Shown one piece after another: positions 1 through 42,891 of a DNA stretch of 64,000 bases. The notes beneath the pieces were generated by a model. It was not told the DNA's origin, did not search any database, and worked only from the letters and a program-made list of their open reading frames with translations. Source of the DNA: Chloroflexota bacterium (GTDB taxonomy: Bacteria; Chloroflexota; Limnocylindria; Limnocylindrales; CSP1-4); the NCBI GenBank assembly GCA_947475545.1, contig CANJLL010000001.1, positions 618,157-682,156 on the forward strand. The letters run 5' to 3'. Numbering within the stretch: position 1 is the stretch's first letter; each line of letters begins with the position of its first letter. Made by a program: the position numbers and the translations under genes.

Positions 1-733
1 CGGTGCCGGCGCGCCGATAGCGCTCCTGGGTGCCGCCGTGCTGTTGAGCCAGGAGGTGCGTCCCCTGGCGGAGGTAGAGCGCGCCCGCACCCCGGGGCCC
101 TTCCAGCTTGTGCGAAGCGATCGCCAGGAGGTCCACGCCGAGCGCCTCGACATCGATCGGGAGATACGGCGCCGCGGCCACGGCGTCGACCGCCAGCAGG
201 ACGCCCCTGTGGGCATGGACGCGAGCGGCGATCTCCGCGATGGGCTGGATGGTGCCCACCTCGTTGTTGGCGAGCTGCACGGCGACCAGCGTGGTCCGGT
301 CGTTGATCGCGGCCTCCACCTGGTCGGGATCCACGCGACCGTAGCGGTCGACCCCGAGGCTGATGATCTCGAAGCCGAACTTCTCCAGGTGGAGCAGCGC
401 GTGGCCGACGGCGTGATGCTCCACGGCGGTGGTAACGATCCGGTGCCCGCGGGCCTTCCCGGCCCACGCGATCCCCTTGAGCGCCAGGTTGAGCGCCTCG
501 GTCCCGCCGGACGTGATGACGATCTCCCGCGGGTGGGCCTTCAGCGTGGCGCCAATCCGTTCGCGCGCCTCGTCGAGGCCGGCCCGCGCCAACCGCCCAT
601 GGGCATGCGGCGAGCTGGGGTTACCGAACACCTCGGTCAGGTACGGAAGCATCGCCTCGAACGCTTCGCGGCGCAGCGGCGTGGTCGCGGCGTGATCGAG
701 ATAGATGGGAAGGGCGGAGGAGGGTGTCGCCAT
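1..733 (-). CDS. Cysteine desulfurase (NifS/IscS class-V aminotransferase), N-terminal part only. The gene runs off the window start, so its C-terminus is missing.
   Basis: Minus-strand translation from the ATG at 733..731 reads MATPSSALPIYLDHAATTPL...SGGTEALN...VDAVAAAPYLPIDVEALGVDLLAIASHKLEGPRG, including the PLP-lysine SHK motif typical of NifS/IscS. It is absent from the ORF track only because no stop falls inside the window. Confidence 0.85.
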   Translation of the reverse strand, partial: MATPSSALPIYLDHAATTPLRREAFEAMLPYLTEVFGNPSSPHAHGRLARAGLDEARERIGATLKAHPREIVITSGGTEALNLALKGIAWAGKARGHRIVTTAVEHHAVGHALLHLEKFGFEIISLGVDRYGRVDPDQVEAAINDRTTLVAVQLANNEVGTIQPIAEIAARVHAHRGVLLAVDAVAAAPYLPIDVEALGVDLLAIASHKLEGPRGAGALYLRQGTHLLAQQHGGTQERYRRAGT

Positions 734-830
734 GGGCGGCGATTCTACGCCGGGGCCCGATTGGGGGCCGTGGGGTGGCCCGACGCGCGGCGATCGCGAT
801 GTCGGGGGGCCGCGGCCCGGGCCCGCTGGG

Positions 831-1868
831 TCAGGACCGCTCGGCGTCTGCCGGAAGGTCCGAGACCGGGCACGGGTCGTCGGGCGGACGGGTAGGCTCG
901 GGTGCGGGTGCGGGTGCGGGCGCGGGCGCGGGCGCGGGCGCGGACTCGGGATCGGCTTCGGGCGCGGCTTCGGGTTCAGGTGCCGGCTCAGGTCCGGGCT
1001 CGGTCCCGGTTGCCGGCTCAGGCGCGGGTGTCAGTTCGGGCTCAGGTTCGGGCTCGGGTGCTGGTTTGCTGGCGGCCTCCGACGGCGCGTAGACCGGGGC
1101 GGACCCCTCACCGGCCGACGCCGCAGCCGCACCCTCGGCAGCAAGCTGCCGGTTCAGCTGCCGCAGGCGGCGACCTCCCGACACGACGCTGACCACTGCG
1201 AGGAACAGCCCCGTCGCCAACAGCGCGATCGGCGTCAGGCCCCGAAGCGGCAGGAACGAGAACATCACCGCCTCCAGCGTGACCGCCAGTCCCAAGAACA
1301 GGCCGCCTGCGATCGCGGCGCCCAGGTGCCCGGAGAACCCCCAGACCAGGAGCAGGAGGCCAATCGCCAGGAGCGCCAGTCCGACGAAGAACGGCAGCGT
1401 GCCAATGGGCTCGCCGACCAGCTTGACCACGAGGGAGCCGGTGCACTCACCGCCCGACCCGATGATCCCGACGGTCAGGTAGTACAGCCCGGTGAAGCGG
1501 AAGGGCGAGCCGGTCGTGAACCCGAACGTGCCCACAGTGGTCCGGGCGTCGCCGCCGTTGAGGGATCCACCCTGGAACGGCGTCGCCATCCCGAACATGG
1601 CCACGTGGTAGTGGTTGTCCTTGAGCGGCACCGTGGTGATCCCGGTCCAGCTGACCGTGCCATCCCAGTCGATCAGGAGGGGGTCTTCCGGCGAGGCGCT
1701 GTCATCACCGCTCTTCGCGGAGTCGAGCACGTTGCCCTTGGCGTCGTTGGAGGCCAGCTCAAGCGTGCACGGGCCCTTGGCTGGGAGGGCGACCACGGTC
1801 GCAGGCAGGACCAGGAGCCAGGCCAGGGCCGCGATGGCCACGATCCGGGCGAGGGCTAAGGCGCGCAA
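831..1868 (-). CDS. Secreted/membrane protein of unknown family. It has a signal peptide, a 2-Cys beta-rich ectodomain, about 4 TM helices, and a C-terminal Pro/Ala/Glu low-complexity tail.
   Basis: A hydrophobic N-terminus (MRALALARIVAIAALAWLLVLPA) is followed by a conserved C..ASNDAKG..LDSAKSG..SAS block shared with the downstream paralog. Multiple hydrophobic helices follow, and the tail reads PAPEPEPEPE...PAPAPAPAPAPAPEP. Confidence 0.6.
   Translation of the reverse strand: MRALALARIVAIAALAWLLVLPATVVALPAKGPCTLELASNDAKGNVLDSAKSGDDSASPEDPLLIDWDGTVSWTGITTVPLKDNHYHVAMFGMATPFQGGSLNGGDARTTVGTFGFTTGSPFRFTGLYYLTVGIIGSGGECTGSLVVKLVGEPIGTLPFFVGLALLAIGLLLLVWGFSGHLGAAIAGGLFLGLAVTLEAVMFSFLPLRGLTPIALLATGLFLAVVSVVSGGRRLRQLNRQLAAEGAAAASAGEGSAPVYAPSEAASKPAPEPEPEPELTPAPEPATGTEPGPEPAPEPEAAPEADPESAPAPAPAPAPAPAPEPTRPPDDPCPVSDLPADAERS
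899..950. repeat. Hexanucleotide microsatellite (GGTGCG)3(GGCGCG)5 with degenerate GGYTCGG extensions out to about 1075. It encodes the (PA)n/(PE)n linker of the 831..1868 protein.
   Basis: Direct reading gives ggtgcgggtgcgggtgcgggcgcgggcgcgggcgcgggcgcgg. The 6-nt unit preserves reading frame. Confidence 0.8.
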
Positions 1869-2035
1869 CCGTTCCTCCGACGCTCCGGCCCGGAGCAGCC
1901 GGGCCTTTGTCCAAGGTACATCGGGCGGCTAGGGCCTAGCGGCCCCGTCCGTTCGGCCCGTGGCCCAGAAACGGAGCCGGCGGACGCCGAAGCGTCCGCC
2001 GGGTGCGATGCGATGGTTAGGGGCAACTCCGCGGG

Positions 2036-2764
2036 TCAGGCGGCCGGAGGCGCGTCGGTCCCCCAGTGGAGCAGGCCCTTGCCGACGACCAGCTCGGCCG
2101 CGCCGATGAGCACGCCGAGGACGATCGCGGCCTCGGGCGTCGCGCTACCCAGGGGGGTGATCCCGAACAGAACCGATCCTAGGGCAAGGGCCGCACCCAG
2201 GGTGAGGCCGCCCAGCAGCGCCACGATCCACACGGCGCCCGCGCCCAGCACGAGCAGGATCAGGGCCGTCACCAGGAGGCCCAGGTCAAGGAAGAAGAGC
2301 GGGGTGCCGACCGGGTTCCCGACGATCTCGAACCAGCCGTCGCCCTCGCAGGTCCCCGCCGCGCTCGTGATCGCCCCGGTGACGTGGTACTTGCCGGTGA
2401 CCGGGAAGGGCACCAGGTCCTTGAGGCTGACCGTACCGCTCCCGGTGAGGCTGGTGCCTCCGCCGGAGCCGCTCTGGACCGGGATGCCGAAGATGTCAAC
2501 GTGCCAGGTGGCATTCGGCAAGGCGGTGGTCACCGCACCAGTCCACTTGATGGCACCCTCGGAGTCAACCTTGAACGGCGCGGCCTCGGAGGCTGAGCCG
2601 TTGCCGCTCGCAGCCGTGTCGAGCGACTCGCCCTTGGCATCGACCGACGTGGCCTGCATGCTGCAGACGCCGGTGAGGGGGAACGCCGTGGCGGCCCCGG
2701 GCAGGAGCATGAGCCACAGGAGCCCGGCAATGGGCAGCCCCCGAAGAATCCTGGAGCGGCGCAT
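2036..2764 (-). CDS. Paralog of the 831..1868 protein. It has a signal peptide, the same 2-Cys ectodomain and C-terminal TM helices, but no Pro-rich tail.
   Basis: MRRSRILRGLPIAGLLWLMLLPGAATA signal peptide. The C..ATSVDAKGESLDTAASGNGSAS...WTG..TT..P....HV..FG...G...G..C.G block aligns with the upstream gene, and the hydrophobic C-terminal half matches too. Confidence 0.6.
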   Translation of the reverse strand: MRRSRILRGLPIAGLLWLMLLPGAATAFPLTGVCSMQATSVDAKGESLDTAASGNGSASEAAPFKVDSEGAIKWTGAVTTALPNATWHVDIFGIPVQSGSGGGTSLTGSGTVSLKDLVPFPVTGKYHVTGAITSAAGTCEGDGWFEIVGNPVGTPLFFLDLGLLVTALILLVLGAGAVWIVALLGGLTLGAALALGSVLFGITPLGSATPEAAIVLGVLIGAAELVVGKGLLHWGTDAPPAA

Positions 2765-2927
2765 ATCTCACCCGGACGCGGGGCAGGCTTGGCCTGGGCA
2801 GCCGAGCGGAGCCGAGCCCAAGGTAGCCGCACCAAACCGGGAATACCAGAGGAATCGTCGCTCGATCCCGGCGCCGGATGCGGCGTCCCGCTGAACGCCC
2901 GGCCGGCCCGCCCGGGCGGGCCGAAGG

Positions 2928-4850
2928 TCAGTCGCGCTCGGACGACCGCCGCAGATCATCCTCGCGGCCGCGCTCCCGGCGCCGCTCGTGCTGACCCAGC
3001 TTCCGCTTGCGAAGGCGGATTGACTTGGGGGTCACTTCGACCAGCTCGTCCGCCGCGATGAACTCGAGCGAGGACTCCAGGGTCAGTGGCCGCGGCGGCG
3101 TCAGCCGGAGCGACTCGTCGTGCGAGTGGGTCCGGATGTTGGTGAGCTTCTTCTCCTTGGTGGGGTTGACGTCCATGTCGCCCTGCCGGGAGTTCTCGCC
3201 GACGATCATGCCCTCGTAGACGTCGATGCCGGCGCCGATGAACAGCTCCGCCCGCTCCTCGAGGTTGAAGAGCCCGTACGCGTTGGACGTGCCCGCCCGG
3301 TCGGAGACCAGGACCCCGGAGGTTCGATGGGTCACATCGCCGGCCCACGGCCCGTAGCCCTCGCCGATCTGGTGAAGCAGCGCCGTGCCGCGGGTGTCCG
3401 TGAGCAGCTGCCCGCGGTACCCGATCAGGCCGCGGACCGGCAGGACGTATTCCATCCGGACACGCCCGTCGGCGTCGGTGCTCATCTGGTCCAGGCGGCC
3501 CTTGCGGCCCGCCATCGCCTGCTGGATCTCGCCGATGTAGTCGGGCGGCATGTCGATCGTGATCCGCTCGTACGGCTCCTGGACGTGGCCATCGACCTCG
3601 CGCAGGATGACCTCGGGGCGTGACGCCGTGAGCTCGAAGCCCTCGCGCCGCATCTGCTCGATCAGGACCGCCAGCTGGAGCTCGCCGCGGCCACGGACCT
3701 CGAATGTCTCGCCCGATTCGGTGGAGTAGAACTCGATCGAGACGTTGCCCAGGACTTCCTTCTCGAGGCGCGCCCGGATCTGGCGGGAGGTGACGTACTT
3801 GCCTTCCTTGCCGGCCAGCGGAGACGTGTTCACCCCGAACGTCATGCGCAGGGTTGGGGCGTCCACGTCCAGGCGGGGAAGGGGGCGCGGATTGCCCGGC
3901 TCGGTGAGCGTGTCGCCGATGGTGACCTCGGGGAGGCCAGCGACCGAGACGATGTCGCCCGGCCCGGCGGAGTCGATGTCCACGCGGTCGATGCCGTGTG
4001 CGGTCTGGAGGCTGGTGACCGTGCCGGTCAGCGTGACCGTGCGGCCGGGCTCCACGGCGCCCGACGTGTCGTCCAGCTCCTCGCGGACCACCACGACGCG
4101 CTGGCCCATCTTGATGGTGCCATTCCAGATCCGGCCGACCGCCATCCGGCCCACGTACTCGTTGGCAGACAGGTTGGTGACCAGGAGCTGGAGCGGGTGA
4201 TCCGGCAGGTAGCGCGGCGGCGGCGTCACCGAGACAAGGAGGTCCAGCAGCGGCTTGAGGTCCGTGCCTGGGGCGGCCAGGTCCCGGGTCGCGGTGCCGG
4301 CTCGGGCGTTGGTGTAGACCACCGGGAACTCGATCTGGTGCTCCGTGGCGCCCAGGTCCATGAACAGCTCGTAGACGTCGTCCAGGACCTCGGCCGGGCG
4401 GGCGTCGCTCCGGTCGATCTTGTTGAGGGCCACGACGACCGGCAGGTGGCGAGCCATCGCCTTCTTGAGCACGTACCGCGTCTGCGGGAGCGGGCCTTCG
4501 GCCGCGTCAACCAGCAGGAGCACCGCGTCGACCATCAGCAGGGAGCGCTCTACCTCGCCACCGAAGTCGGCATGGCCAGGGGTATCGACGATGTTCAGAC
4601 GGATCCCGGCGTAGTCGACCGTGGTCTGCTTGGCCAGGATGGTGATGCCCTTTTCGCGCTCCAGGTCCCCGGAGTCCATCACCCGGTCCACGACGACCTG
4701 GTTGGACCGGAACGTGCCGGTCTGCCGCAGGATGGCGTCCACGAGCGTGGTCTTGCCATGGTCGACGTGGGCGACGATGGCAAGATTGCGGATACCCGTC
4801 TGTTCGACGGTGCCATCGGCGGGCAGGCTGGTTTGGGTCGGTGTGGTCAT
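2928..4850 (-). CDS. typA: Translational GTPase TypA/BipA. The start is trimmed to the internal MTTPTQ...[16 protein letters not shown].
   Basis: G1–G4 GTPase motifs ([24 protein letters not shown]) and the EF-G-like domain architecture. The N-terminal 64 residues of the track ORF are Arg-rich junk. Confidence 0.9.
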
Positions 4851-16627: not shown

Positions 16628-17835
16628 GCCAGGTCGCCGGCGCGCCCCCCGGGGCCCGCGGCCACTCCGCCGGCATCGTCCGGGGCCACGCCCGCGGGGC
16701 CCCCCGCGCCGGCATCGCCCCGGGTAACGCCCACGGCGCCAGCCGCGCCGGGGCCTCCTTCGGCCGCGACGGCGCCGGCCGCCCGCCGCTCCCGGTCCAT
16801 GCGTCGCCGGCTGAGCCGGACCCTGGCGTCCTGGCCTAGCGCGTAGACCCGTCGGCCGAACGGGTTGAGCACCAGGTCCCAGGCCCCGATGTACTCGACA
16901 TCTCGGCCGCCGAAGCCCGTCTTGAAGTGGGCGATCCCCTCGGTCACCTCGCCCCACATGTCGTAGCTGGTGCCGCCGGCCTCGCGGGACGTGCGGATGG
17001 CCTCCCACTTGAGCAGGTAGTTGGCGCGCGATTCGGCGCCGGCCGCCGTCATCCCGCCGTACGGCTCCACGACCCGCGGGCCGCAGCGGACGAGGAAGAG
17101 GGTGGCCTGGCCGCGGCCGTCCGGGGTCTGCGCGAAGAGCAGGCGGGCATTCCCCGCCGGCGCGAAGGCCTCCCAGATGTCGCGGTACGCCGACAGCGCG
17201 CGGATCTGGAAGCCGGCCCGCAGGGCCGTCTCCTGGTAGATGGCATAGAACTCCGGGAGCCGCTCCGCGCCCGCGTCGACCATCGCCAGGCCGGACGCCC
17301 GCGCCTTGTTGACATACTGGCGCCACTTCTTGCGCAGGTCGGCCCACAGCGCGGCCTCATCGGGTCGCAGGTCCACCAGCCTGGTCGAGCGAGGCTGAAT
17401 CGCGGGCGCCGGGCGCCAGCCCGCGTCGCGCAGCGCCGCCCGGAAGGCGCCGTCGGCGTCGTGCGGACCGTCCGCCTCGATCTCCGGGTCGATCCGAAGG
17501 TGCGAGATGGGGCCCGCGATGCGCGGGAGCTGGGCGCGAACGGCGGCCGTGAAGGCGGCAACGCCGGCCGGATCCCAGGAGCTGGCGACGGGGCCGCGGG
17601 GGGCATAGGCAAAGCCCCACGGCAGGGGCCTCGGCCGCGTGACCAGGACCTGCATGCCCATCCGGCCACCAGGGACATCGGCCAGGATGCGGGCCGACCG
17701 CCAGCCGTTCACCGCCTTGACGGTCGCCCAGCCGGCGAACTGGAGGTACGAACCCAGCTCGGTGGACGCGACGAAGTCGTCCCACCGCTCGGGATCGGCG
17801 GCGATCGTGGAGGCCGACGCCTCGGCGGCTGGCAT
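16624..17835 (-). CDS. FemAB-family peptidoglycan interpeptide-bridge aminoacyltransferase, copy 2, with a Gly/Ala-rich C-terminal tail. The start is trimmed to MPAAEASAS.
   Basis: FemAB signatures (QFAGWATVKAVNGWRSARIL...LLKWEAIRTSREAGGTSYDMWG...FKTGFGG). The start codon overlaps the murJ stop (TGATG). Confidence 0.75.
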   Translation of the reverse strand: MPAAEASASTIAADPERWDDFVASTELGSYLQFAGWATVKAVNGWRSARILADVPGGRMGMQVLVTRPRPLPWGFAYAPRGPVASSWDPAGVAAFTAAVRAQLPRIAGPISHLRIDPEIEADGPHDADGAFRAALRDAGWRPAPAIQPRSTRLVDLRPDEAALWADLRKKWRQYVNKARASGLAMVDAGAERLPEFYAIYQETALRAGFQIRALSAYRDIWEAFAPAGNARLLFAQTPDGRGQATLFLVRCGPRVVEPYGGMTAAGAESRANYLLKWEAIRTSREAGGTSYDMWGEVTEGIAHFKTGFGGRDVEYIGAWDLVLNPFGRRVYALGQDARVRLSRRRMDRERRAAGAVAAEGGPGAAGAVGVTRGDAGAGGPAGVAPDDAGGVAAGPGGRAGDLA

Positions 17836-42816: not shown

Positions 42817-42891
42817 TGGTAGCAGGGACAGGATTCGAACCTGTGACCTAGCGATTATGAGCCGCTTGCTCTGCCGCTGAGCTACCCTGCC
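42817..42891 (-). tRNA. tRNA-Met (anticodon CAU) with encoded CCA. It has elongator-type features (G1·U72 pair; no 3×GC anticodon stem).
   Basis: The reverse complement folds as a cloverleaf: acceptor GGCAGGG/CCCTGCT, D stem GCTC/GAGC, anticodon stem AGCGG/TCGCT with loop CTCATAA, T stem ACAGG/CCTGT with loop TTCGAAT, then discriminator A and CCA. Confidence 0.85.

Follow-up and report, generated by a model that had tools for sequence, protein, structure and literature searches.

Two adjacent genes, denoted g1 and g2, within a stretch of 64,000 nucleotides of the genome of an uncultured member of the Chloroflexota from soil (hereafter, the window) are probably transcribed separately and encode membrane proteins of a family that is new, although its general type is familiar. 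The most likely function of these proteins, in what is our best although still tentative reading, is that of a module for binding or sensing outside the cytoplasm. The features of the locus are listed in Table 1.

These findings support a new domain-family entry as well as correct annotation of small hairpin genes that are easily missed. The split and fused forms of the family define the functional unit, namely, the ectodomain with the first transmembrane helix (TM1) plus a two-helix partner, and the fusions with a kinase and with a sigma/anti-sigma protein suggest that it receives signals, a role that can be tested.

Table 1. Features of the g1–g2 locus (positions in the window)
Feature	Coordinates	Strand	Comments
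g1	831..1868	(-)	345-aa family member; TTG start, GGAGGA-N5-TTG; conserved occupant of the BipA–IscS slot
Predicted g1 cytoplasmic tail, residues 234-345	834..1169	(-)	basic stop-transfer GGRRLRQLNRQ, then acidic Pro/Ala/Glu-rich linker of variable length
Conserved C-terminal tail motif R327-P339, RPPDDPCPVSDLP	852..890	(-)	kept in L017 (RPPDDPWPAVDLP) and P0005 (RPPDDPWPAADLP)
g1 three-helix membrane unit, residues 158-233	1170..1397	(-)	hydropathy peaks 157-178, 190-208, 211-229; aligned with the g2 helices
g1 ectodomain, residues 28-157	1398..1787	(-)	Cys34 and Cys142; from alignments and Cys positions
g2–g1 intergenic region	1869..2035	(-)	terminator-like 11-bp GC stem with UUCG loop, 2002..1977; TACCTTGG at 1918..1911, then GCCCGGCTGCTCCGG
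g2	2036..2764	(-)	242-aa family member; ATG start; accessory, deep paralog
g2 three-helix membrane unit, residues 155-235	2060..2302	(-)	TM1, then TM2-TM3 hairpin; Gly-rich TM2, conserved T-P turn
g2 ectodomain, residues 28-154	2303..2683	(-)	predicted nine-strand beta-sandwich, invariant C34 and C139, juxtamembrane motif G-x-P-x-G-T at the end
g2 signal peptide, residues 1-27 (MRRSRILRGLPIAGLLWLMLLPGAATA / FPL)	2684..2764	(-)	predicted SPase I site, read from sequence; putative cleavage
BipA–g2 intergenic region	2765..2927	(-)	TACCTTGG at 2825..2818 (-10-like TAnnnT), then GCTCGGCTGCCCAGG; putative promoter

Two paralogous genes of an undescribed family

Both open reading frames sit where the initial annotation of this DNA had placed them, and gene calls in metagenome assemblies likewise include g1 with its 345 aa. 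Their GC3 values (0.85 for g1 and 0.91 for g2), the dN/dS of g1 against the sister genome L017 (0.31 overall, with 0.24 in the ectodomain and 0.37 in the membrane unit), the hundreds of homologs and the pLDDT of 90.8 for the AF2 model of g2 jointly argue that these are genuine genes rather than high-GC shadow ORFs. Judged by their sequences, g1 and g2 are real paralogs. The block that they had been claimed to share is significant on formal alignment, far above chance (BLASTP, 36% identity over 236 aa with 3 gaps, E 3e-37), and includes the motifs originally quoted, that is, C-x-x-x-x-S-x-DAKG, WTG, HV..FG and the second Cys in C.G. The scores against the family hidden Markov model (HMM) are 246.6 bits for g1 and 238 bits for g2.

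An exhaustive profile search delineates a family of at least 402 clusters (at 50% identity) with E<=1e-3, and 220 clusters with E<=1e-10; word-indexed protein searches are nearly blind to this family, with 2, 2 and 11 matches. Thus, the architecture that had been regarded as uncommon is recurrent, being undescribed but not rare. The members come almost wholly from uncultured soil and sediment bacteria, the hosts being uncultured Chloroflexota (Limnocylindria-like) and, probably, Actinomycetota, and every database name among the homologs is ‘hypothetical protein’.

As had been surmised, neither gene can be assigned to a known family. Pfam-A (E<=10) and NCBIfam searches give nothing credible for g1 or g2, no Pfam family is matched by more than one of 97 family members, and the family profile has no match among PDB sequences. 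PADLOC has no match for g1 or g2, and its matches to the family relative P0042 reflect a generic kinase. The sole PHROGs match is weak (E 9e-4), of unknown function, and located in the low-complexity tail of g1; apart from this match, a defence or phage origin is unsupported.

Predicted architecture

The predicted build is as first described, that is, a signal peptide, a beta-rich ectodomain with two Cys residues and a C-terminal multi-TM part. The first hydrophobic segment of both g1 and g2 resembles a cleavable signal peptide. In the family alignment, the columns at -3 and -1 are occupied by A/V in 84 and by A/G in 89 of the 97 members, respectively, and the predicted mature N-terminus of g1 and g2 is Phe or Leu.

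The AF2 model of g2 (pTM 0.81) contains nine strands followed by three TM helices, at residues 155-174, 179-200 and 206-235. From this model, the ectodomain is predicted to be an E-set/Ig-like beta-sandwich of ~120 residues that faces outward from the cytoplasmic membrane, with a conserved G-x-P-x-G-T junction linking it to the helices in both proteins. The two family Cys are invariant (96/96 and 97/97 sequences) and, in the model, lie at the beginning of the first and of the last strand, where C34 and C139 probably pair as a disulfide. In the remaining conserved columns of the family, the residues are structural ones (Gly, Pro and Trp).

The number of helices after the ectodomain is three in the g2 model, instead of the ‘about four’ initially counted, the fourth hydrophobic stretch being the signal peptide. 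TM2 shows a Gly-zipper-like pattern (GGLxLGxG), and very short loops connect the helices. The family members fit the positive-inside rule, with basic TM1-TM2 loops and basic stretches past TM3; together with the three TM helices, this would place the C-terminus of g1 and g2 and, with it, the g1 tail in the cytoplasm.

The family also includes short members that consist of the ectodomain and one TM helix. All 5 of those examined directly precede a gene of 64-127 aa, with an overlap of 1-4 nt in 3 of the 5 pairs, and these partner genes are recognised by the TM2-TM3 hairpin region of the family HMM (25-45 bits); HMM positions about 180-254 constitute a separate gene in the short members. Other membrane ORFs of these loci give no match to the family HMM, and in the neighbourhoods of distant members, there is no common partner besides the hairpin gene. 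With TM2-TM3 encoded by a separate, adjacent gene in the short members, the TM part is a conserved functional unit, more than an anchor.

The Pro/Ala/Glu-rich tail ascribed to the first copy is present in g1 (P 27%, A 25%, E 15%; net charge -16), although its length is about 110 aa rather than roughly 90. Short-period DNA repeats occupy positions 895-1059 of the tail region, and in L017, the g1 tail is 40 aa shorter. The terminal motif RPPDDPxPxxDLP is retained although the preceding linker, predicted to be flexible, differs in both length and sequence. Ending, as it does, in a motif that is conserved among orthologs, the g1 tail is not plain filler; Pro-rich cytoplasmic tails recur in the family.

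Transcription

The motif TACCTTGG is common to both intergenic regions (motif alignment), and the hairpin past g2 has a predicted folding energy of -35.9 kcal/mol (z -3.2), with 1 of 200 shuffles as good. A scan for consensus sigma-70 promoters and simple terminators yields no match in either intergenic region; the g2 hairpin was missed by the simple terminator scan because of its weak U-tract. In an Rfam search of the window, the only match is a tRNA elsewhere, with no leader or riboswitch near g1 and g2. The presence of the hairpin after g2 and of the same upstream motif before both genes suggests that the two are probably transcribed separately.

Relationships to known folds and membrane proteins

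The modeled g2 ectodomain is a beta-sandwich of the ML/E-set type and, in this respect, is similar to the ML domains of NPC2, Der p 2 and MD-2. The ML proteins are soluble, known mainly from eukaryotes and contain further disulfides, whereas the g1/g2 domain is bacterial and is joined to a three-helix membrane unit. Homology with the ML domains is ruled out at the sequence level: the ML domain PF02221 (E1_DerP2_DerF2) has no Pfam match to g1 or g2 (E<=10) or among the 97 members, and comparison of the family profile with an ML alignment, confirmed as such by its PDB matches, yields an hhalign probability of 0.2%. The lipid-binding sandwiches of RhoGDI, PDE6delta and UNC119 show 7-12% sequence identity to the family domain. 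The latter proteins are cytosolic, eukaryotic, prenyl- or acyl-binding, and contain neither a disulfide nor a membrane segment. With lipid-binding sandwiches as the nearest folds, our leading guess for the ligand of the modeled domain is a hydrophobic compound or an envelope lipid.

PmoD, CopC and YcnI are small beta-sandwiches with a C-terminal TM helix, from which the family differs in having neither conserved metal ligands nor a profile match. A relationship with the four-TM surface proteins (tetraspanin, claudin, CD20) is rejected as well: Tetraspanin and Claudin_2 match one member each of the 97 (E 0.011-0.042), CD20 matches one fusion protein, and the first segment of g1 and g2 is signal peptide-like.

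The sensors of Ser/Thr kinases and anti-sigma factors (PASTA in the PknB type, and the RskA type) have the same position and apparent use as the family module in some of its relatives but belong to a different fold and sequence family; in the case of the family, the ectodomain precedes further TM helices or a hairpin protein. Unlike these sensors, g1 and g2 stand alone, with no recognisable signalling or output domain in the cytoplasm except for the conserved tail motif of g1.

Signalling fusions and the favored reading

Several relatives of g1 and g2 are fusion proteins in which the family module is connected, via a TM helix, to an N-terminal domain. In P0042, this is a Ser/Thr kinase (Pkinase, E 2e-50); in P0083, a Sigma70_r2 domain with an H-x3-C-x2-C anti-sigma motif; and in P0102, a region with AAA-type ATPase matches that are below the Pfam thresholds (E 2e-3). 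Signalling fusions are a small minority among the 150 matches listed.

If the module indeed functions in extracytoplasmic binding or sensing, the sandwich would recognise some target at the surface of the membrane or within the cell envelope, with the three-helix unit linking this binding to the membrane, and the g1 tail motif could dock a cytoplasmic partner. A far more specific scenario, which we consider improbable as a whole, is that the family is a membrane-integrated bacterial counterpart of the eukaryotic NPC2/MD-2-like sandwiches. It would be a two-part module, with a disulfide-stapled, lipid-binding sandwich carrying TM1 and a TM2-TM3 hairpin partner, fused or encoded by two coupled genes, that would function in the sensing or transfer of an envelope lipid. 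In Chloroflexota and Actinomycetota, such a module would either act alone, through the docking motif in the tail, or provide the input to Ser/Thr kinases, anti-sigma factors and, perhaps, regulators of the ATPase type, with the g2 position being a strain-variable cassette kept by recombination. Should the bound molecule turn out to be a lipid of the membrane or envelope, this would make the family a new class of envelope sensors in two large, poorly studied phyla.

Divergence of the locus and alternative explanations

The neighbours of the two genes are housekeeping genes encoding BipA, an IscS-like protein and MnmA, a neighbourhood that is uninformative. In the phylogenetic tree, g1 clusters with L017, P0005 and P0007, and a separate, deep branch unites g2 and its one relative, which rules out a recent tandem duplication. 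Hence, of the initial description of the pair as duplicated in tandem, the adjacency of paralogs stands, and a recent local duplication does not, g2 being also absent from L017. This sister genome retains g1, and positions 1967..2903 of the window are missing there. In contig L010, 480 nt of BipA and the sequence just past the g2 stop match the window with 100% identity; between these identical flanks lies a g2 allele with 46% protein identity to g2, known from one contig of 1418 nt at 2.4x coverage. A strain variant of g1, L005, has a 12-aa in-frame deletion within the ectodomain. The occupants of the same slot in other genomes are 39-44% identical to g1, far below the values for BipA (81-86%), MnmA (about 77%) and IscS (65-70%) at the same loci, and the dN/dS of g1 compares with 0.03-0.16 in the housekeeping neighbours, all values being well below 1.

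The low identity of the slot orthologs, the elevated dN/dS of g1, the absence or replacement of g2 and the ectodomain deletion would all be expected of a fast-evolving surface protein that is not involved in signalling, such as a receptor or decoy for phages, a tag in cell-cell or kin recognition, or a spacer in the envelope, diversified by selection and recombination. Because the conserved residues are structural, the surface of the ectodomain would be free to vary, as such a protein requires. The fast divergence of g2 and its presence or absence suit surface recognition at least as well as sensing. We consider this explanation unlikely, albeit deserving of attention, given that every dN/dS falls well short of 1, that the divergent allele comes from a single low-coverage contig, and that the defence and phage databases yield only the PHROGs match in the g1 tail. 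Furthermore, a passive tag would need neither the juxtamembrane motif nor a membrane hairpin that is conserved even as a separate gene, and the kinase and sigma/anti-sigma fusions point to signal input. The same hairpin, separable and conserved, along with the Gly-zipper-like TM2 and the very short loops, could be accommodated by a small membrane pore or transport accessory, in which Gly-rich three-helix units oligomerise and the sandwich caps or gates the outside. The Pfam, NCBIfam and PDB searches detect no similarity to transporter or channel families, however, and no transporter gene is consistently adjacent in the loci examined, making a pore distinctly improbable.

A chaperone for copper or another metal, of the CopC, PmoD or YcnI kind, appears highly improbable. 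Among the 97 sequences, there is no conserved His, Met or Asp column, none of the His or Met columns reaching 45% conservation (His88 of ‘WHV’ included), and the only invariant residues, the two Cys, are placed on the first and last strands like a structural pair; there is no Pfam match to CopC or YcnI, and no copper-resistance genes are located nearby. With no conservation in the ligand columns, the copper-chaperone idea was rejected. The residual possibility that g1 and g2 are ordinary lipoproteins or adhesins of a known family missed by simple searches is hardly credible: no known family matches by profile, and the sequence context of the first Cys argues against a lipoprotein. The residues before this Cys (A-K-G-P-C in g1, L-T-G-V-C in g2) do not form a lipobox, and a predicted SPase I site of the A-x-A type precedes the Cys. 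Among the relatives, T, N or D is frequent at position -1, and the Cys is separated from the hydrophobic core by 6 to >20 residues, often including charged ones; it is also found after the uncleaved TM helices of fusion proteins.

An exact-DNA scan of JGI metagenomes for the region upstream of g2 gives no match, and an exact look-up of the BipA protein returns only contigs that carry identical g2 and g1. In locus L016, the slot gene and IscS are separated by 2 kb, a gap that was considered as the site of a second family copy; instead, the opposite strand of this gap carries two unrelated ORFs, which may be acetyltransferase-like and DNA-glycosylase-like.

Two paralogs of a new family

The window has a G+C content of about 71%, and g1 and g2, two genes for paralogous membrane proteins, lie in it between BipA/TypA and an IscS-like cysteine desulfurase (see the table). 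The paralogy claimed in the initial annotation is real, because a formal BLASTP comparison aligns the two products over 236 residues at 36% identity with three gaps (E 3e-37). Both genes are overlain by opposite-strand open reading frames that exceed them in length, a hazard for automatic gene calling. These are ordinary high-GC shadows, and the minus-strand frames are favored because of their GC3 (0.85 in g1 and 0.91 in g2), the g1 dN/dS of 0.31 against a sister genome, the sizeable family and the confident fold of g2. The exact g1 product translated from TTG had no match in the protein collection; assemblies do have a called 345-aa gene at this position.

Features of the two genes, their surroundings and the loci compared
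Feature	Position	Strand	Description
g1	831..1868	-	345 aa; TTG start, 5 nt 3' of GGAGGA
g2	2036..2764	-	242 aa; ATG start
BipA/TypA	2928..4850	-	upstream of g2
IscS-like cysteine desulfurase			downstream of g1; continues past window start
Shadow ORF over g1	705..1859	+	384 aa
Shadow ORF over g2	2013..2894	+	293 aa
g2 N-terminal helix	residues 5-18		signal peptide (AlphaFold)
g2 beta-sandwich	residues 34 to 148		nine strands (AlphaFold)
g2 TM helices	residues 155-174, 179-200, 206-235		AlphaFold
g1 strain variant	L005 1155-2156 (vs window 831..1868)		333 aa
Kinase fusion locus	L024 1365-5226		P0042 and following genes
FtsA/MreB-like and Baseplate_J genes	L001 17770-20729		window's contig, past window start
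Tandem repeat	16661..16751		39 bp, 2.4 copies, 79% matches
tRNA gene	42820..42891	-	Rfam match

That the family had gone unrecognized, as first proposed, is supported by the database searches. Pfam-A and NCBIfam gave nothing credible for g1 or g2, the few matches of g1 being to its low-complexity tail and well under the cut-offs; the family profile found none of the PDB sequences; and, when 97 members were scanned individually against Pfam, every Pfam family was matched in at most one of them. PADLOC had no match for either protein, and PHROGs had a single weak one (E 9e-4, unknown function), again in the low-complexity tail of g1. All the database names seen for relatives are 'hypothetical protein', and the titles and abstracts of the top-ranked Limnocylindria literature do not mention a protein of this kind. 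A word-indexed protein search recovered nearly no members, and an exhaustive profile search yielded 402 cluster representatives at E<=1e-3, of which 220 reach E<=1e-10 and 79 reach E<=1e-30. Those close relatives that are named belong to metagenome-assembled genomes labeled Chloroflexota, Chloroflexia and Candidatus Limnocylindria, with one labeled Actinobacteria. In our judgment, the family is new and its general kind is familiar.

Architecture and fold

The AlphaFold model of g2, built with a 97-sequence alignment (pLDDT 90.8, pTM 0.81), consists of a signal peptide, a beta-sandwich and three transmembrane (TM) helices, rather than the 'about four' hydrophobic helices of the initial annotation. 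Column statistics show that C34 and C139 (g2 numbering) are invariant in the family, that P63, G70, G76, G110, P119, G124, V128, G134, G137, G149 and P151 are conserved in more than 80% of the sequences, and that the columns of W74, W87 and W144 are aromatic in most members; the His of the previously noted 'HV' motif lacks conservation. The two Cys are placed at the starts of the first and last strands, and therefore a C34–C139 disulfide is likely according to the model. In most members, positions -3 and -1 ahead of F28 are A/V and A/G, the apparent pattern of a standard SPase I site. In family members, basic residues occur in the TM1-TM2 loop and after TM3, which, together with the three helices, would put the C-terminus in the cytoplasm under the positive-inside rule.

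In the model, the ectodomain is established as an E-set/Ig-like sandwich. Its nearest fold neighbors are lipid-binding sandwiches, with scores of a size that is common for small sandwiches: the matches include RhoGDI (8.1 and 7.8), an uncharacterized Leptospira protein (7.9) and PmoD (7.7), followed by AA9 LPMO (7.3), PDE6delta (6.7) and MD-2/MD-1 (about 6). Foldseek returned the same set (E 1e-4 to 1e-3). Membership in the ML family is unsupported because hhalign gives a probability of 0.2% between the family profile and an ML-domain alignment whose identity was confirmed by its PDB matches (NPC2, Der p 2, Der f 2 and MD-2); the likeness to ML domains is thus confined to the fold level. No paper found in a full-text literature search links ML domains to Actinobacteria.

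Fusions, split genes and tails

Many of the profile-search matches are only about 180-210 aa long and align to the ectodomain and TM1 alone. In all five such loci inspected (P0166, P0122, P0172, P0083 and P0051), the next same-strand gene encodes 64-127 residues, overlaps the short member by 1-4 nt in three cases, and scores 25-45 bits against the TM2-TM3 part of the family HMM (positions about 180-254); the remaining membrane ORFs of these loci do not match the family HMM. The small partner proteins open with a conserved R-H-P-I-R-G stretch. Members accordingly come in two forms, the fused one to which g1 and g2 belong and one split between two adjacent, sometimes overlapping genes, which argues that the three helices would function together and be more than a tether.

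A minority among the matches listed are fusions to signaling domains. In P0042, a Ser/Thr kinase domain (Pkinase, E 2e-50) is followed by a TM helix and the family module; P0083 has the same arrangement, with sigma-70 region 2 plus an H-x3-C-x2-C anti-sigma-type motif in place of the kinase. These fusions place the sandwich at the position of extracytoplasmic input domains. In P0102, the TM helix and module are preceded by AAA-type ATPase matches that are sub-threshold (E 2e-3, under Pfam cut-offs). After the P0042 gene come a small gene on the opposite strand, encoding one TM helix, and then a gene whose product contains FHA and TIR_2 domains.

The g1 tail (residues about 236-345; 27% Pro, 25% Ala, 15% Glu, net charge -16) is encoded by short-period DNA repeats and is 40 residues longer than that in L017, the sister genome. 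Its last part, RPPDDP[C/W]PxxDLP, is kept in g1, L017 and the family member P0005 (64% identical). Other members also have Pro-rich cytoplasmic tails, and in four of them (P0031, P0034, P0035 and P0057) a long Pro-rich cytoplasmic linker leads to a common conserved C-terminal domain of about 150 residues (…LTIGSD…VANAGQxVASVSVTxGGIxITT) that is unmatched in Pfam and appears to be a further undescribed domain.

Genomic setting and evolution

In seven species-representative genomes, one family member sits directly 3' of BipA in the same orientation, and in most of these genomes it is just 5' of IscS and MnmA. Among 80 JGI metagenome loci in which the BipA C-terminus is 82-90% identical to that of the window, 55 extend at least 900 nt downstream; a family member follows BipA in two of the 55 and in one shorter locus, and none has two members there. 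The only population in which the g1+g2 pair was seen is the window's own, present in many ENA and Logan samples. P0044 (384 aa) joins the BipA C-terminus in frame to a family member and, although its most likely origin is a frameshift or an artefact of assembly, independently displays the same adjacency.

The sister genome (dS about 0.15) has g1 and lacks window 1967..2903, which comprises g2 and its flanks. In a crude neighbor-joining tree, g1 clusters with L017, P0005 and P0007, and g2 forms a deep separate branch with P0002 as its sole companion, which excludes a recent tandem duplication. Either, then, g1 and g2 are old paralogs or g2 was acquired. P0002 is the g2 allele of L010, a 1418-nt contig of 2.4x coverage that aligns to window 3389..1976. 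Across 480 nt of BipA and most of the intergenic region, L010 and the window agree at 100%; identity is about 50-70% in a stretch that begins roughly 25 nt 5' of the g2 start and ends some 20 nt 3' of the stop, and the last 40 nt of the contig again agree at 100%. The P0002 protein shares 46% identity with g2 and retains all the family-conserved residues. If L010 is not an assembly chimera, g2 would be a replaceable cassette within one population.

Orthologs in the slot between BipA and IscS are 39-44% identical to g1, compared with 65-86% for the neighboring genes. Against L017, dN/dS of g1 is 0.24 in the ectodomain, 0.37 in the TM part and 0.28 in the tail, and that of BipA, IscS, AlaS and MnmA is 0.03-0.16; selection on g1 is purifying but relaxed. 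In the L005 strain variant of g1, a 12-residue in-frame ectodomain deletion (about residues 111-122) takes out the P-F that is conserved in the PFRFTG motif; either true strain variation or an artefact of assembly could explain it.

Both intergenic regions contain TACCTTGG, then GCYCGGCTGCYCMGG, and the g2 stop is followed by a hairpin with an 11-bp GC stem and a UUCG loop (z -3.2). Given this shared upstream motif and the hairpin, neither of which was flagged by simple consensus scans, g1 and g2 are probably transcribed separately.

Possible functions

The evidence best fits a two-part extracytoplasmic binding or sensing module, in which a disulfide-stapled sandwich would be coupled to a three-helix membrane unit. 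In g1 and g2 such a module would work alone, and elsewhere it would serve kinases and anti-sigma factors as their input; the tail of g1 would offer a cytoplasmic docking motif. From the nearest folds, we would guess that the ligand is hydrophobic and envelope-derived. The chief alternative, a surface recognition protein that evolves fast, would account for the divergence, the presence or absence of g2 and the allele replacement; the fusions to kinase and sigma/anti-sigma domains are the kind of context that a sensing module would have.

Other roles are less likely or already disfavored. For a metal chaperone, the fold likeness to PmoD is set against the lack of any conserved ligand column, which makes a PmoD- or CopC-type copper site unlikely in this family. 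For a missed lipoprotein family, the first Cys is not a lipobox Cys, since the residues preceding it in g1 and g2 are unfit for a lipobox; in relatives, the distance from the hydrophobic core to this Cys is 6 to more than 20 residues, and in the fusion proteins it comes after uncleaved TM helices. A missed adhesin family is disfavored by the database searches, and a pore-forming role is less likely.

Other observations in the window and contig

Past the window start, an FtsA/MreB-like gene lies just after alaS, and the gene immediately following it (more than 600 aa) matches the Baseplate_J domain, an arrangement that is unexpected within a housekeeping region and is kept in another locus, L007. 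The tandem repeat listed in the table is the sole strong one in the window, and the tRNA gene is, at gathering thresholds, the sole match to Rfam across its 64 kb.
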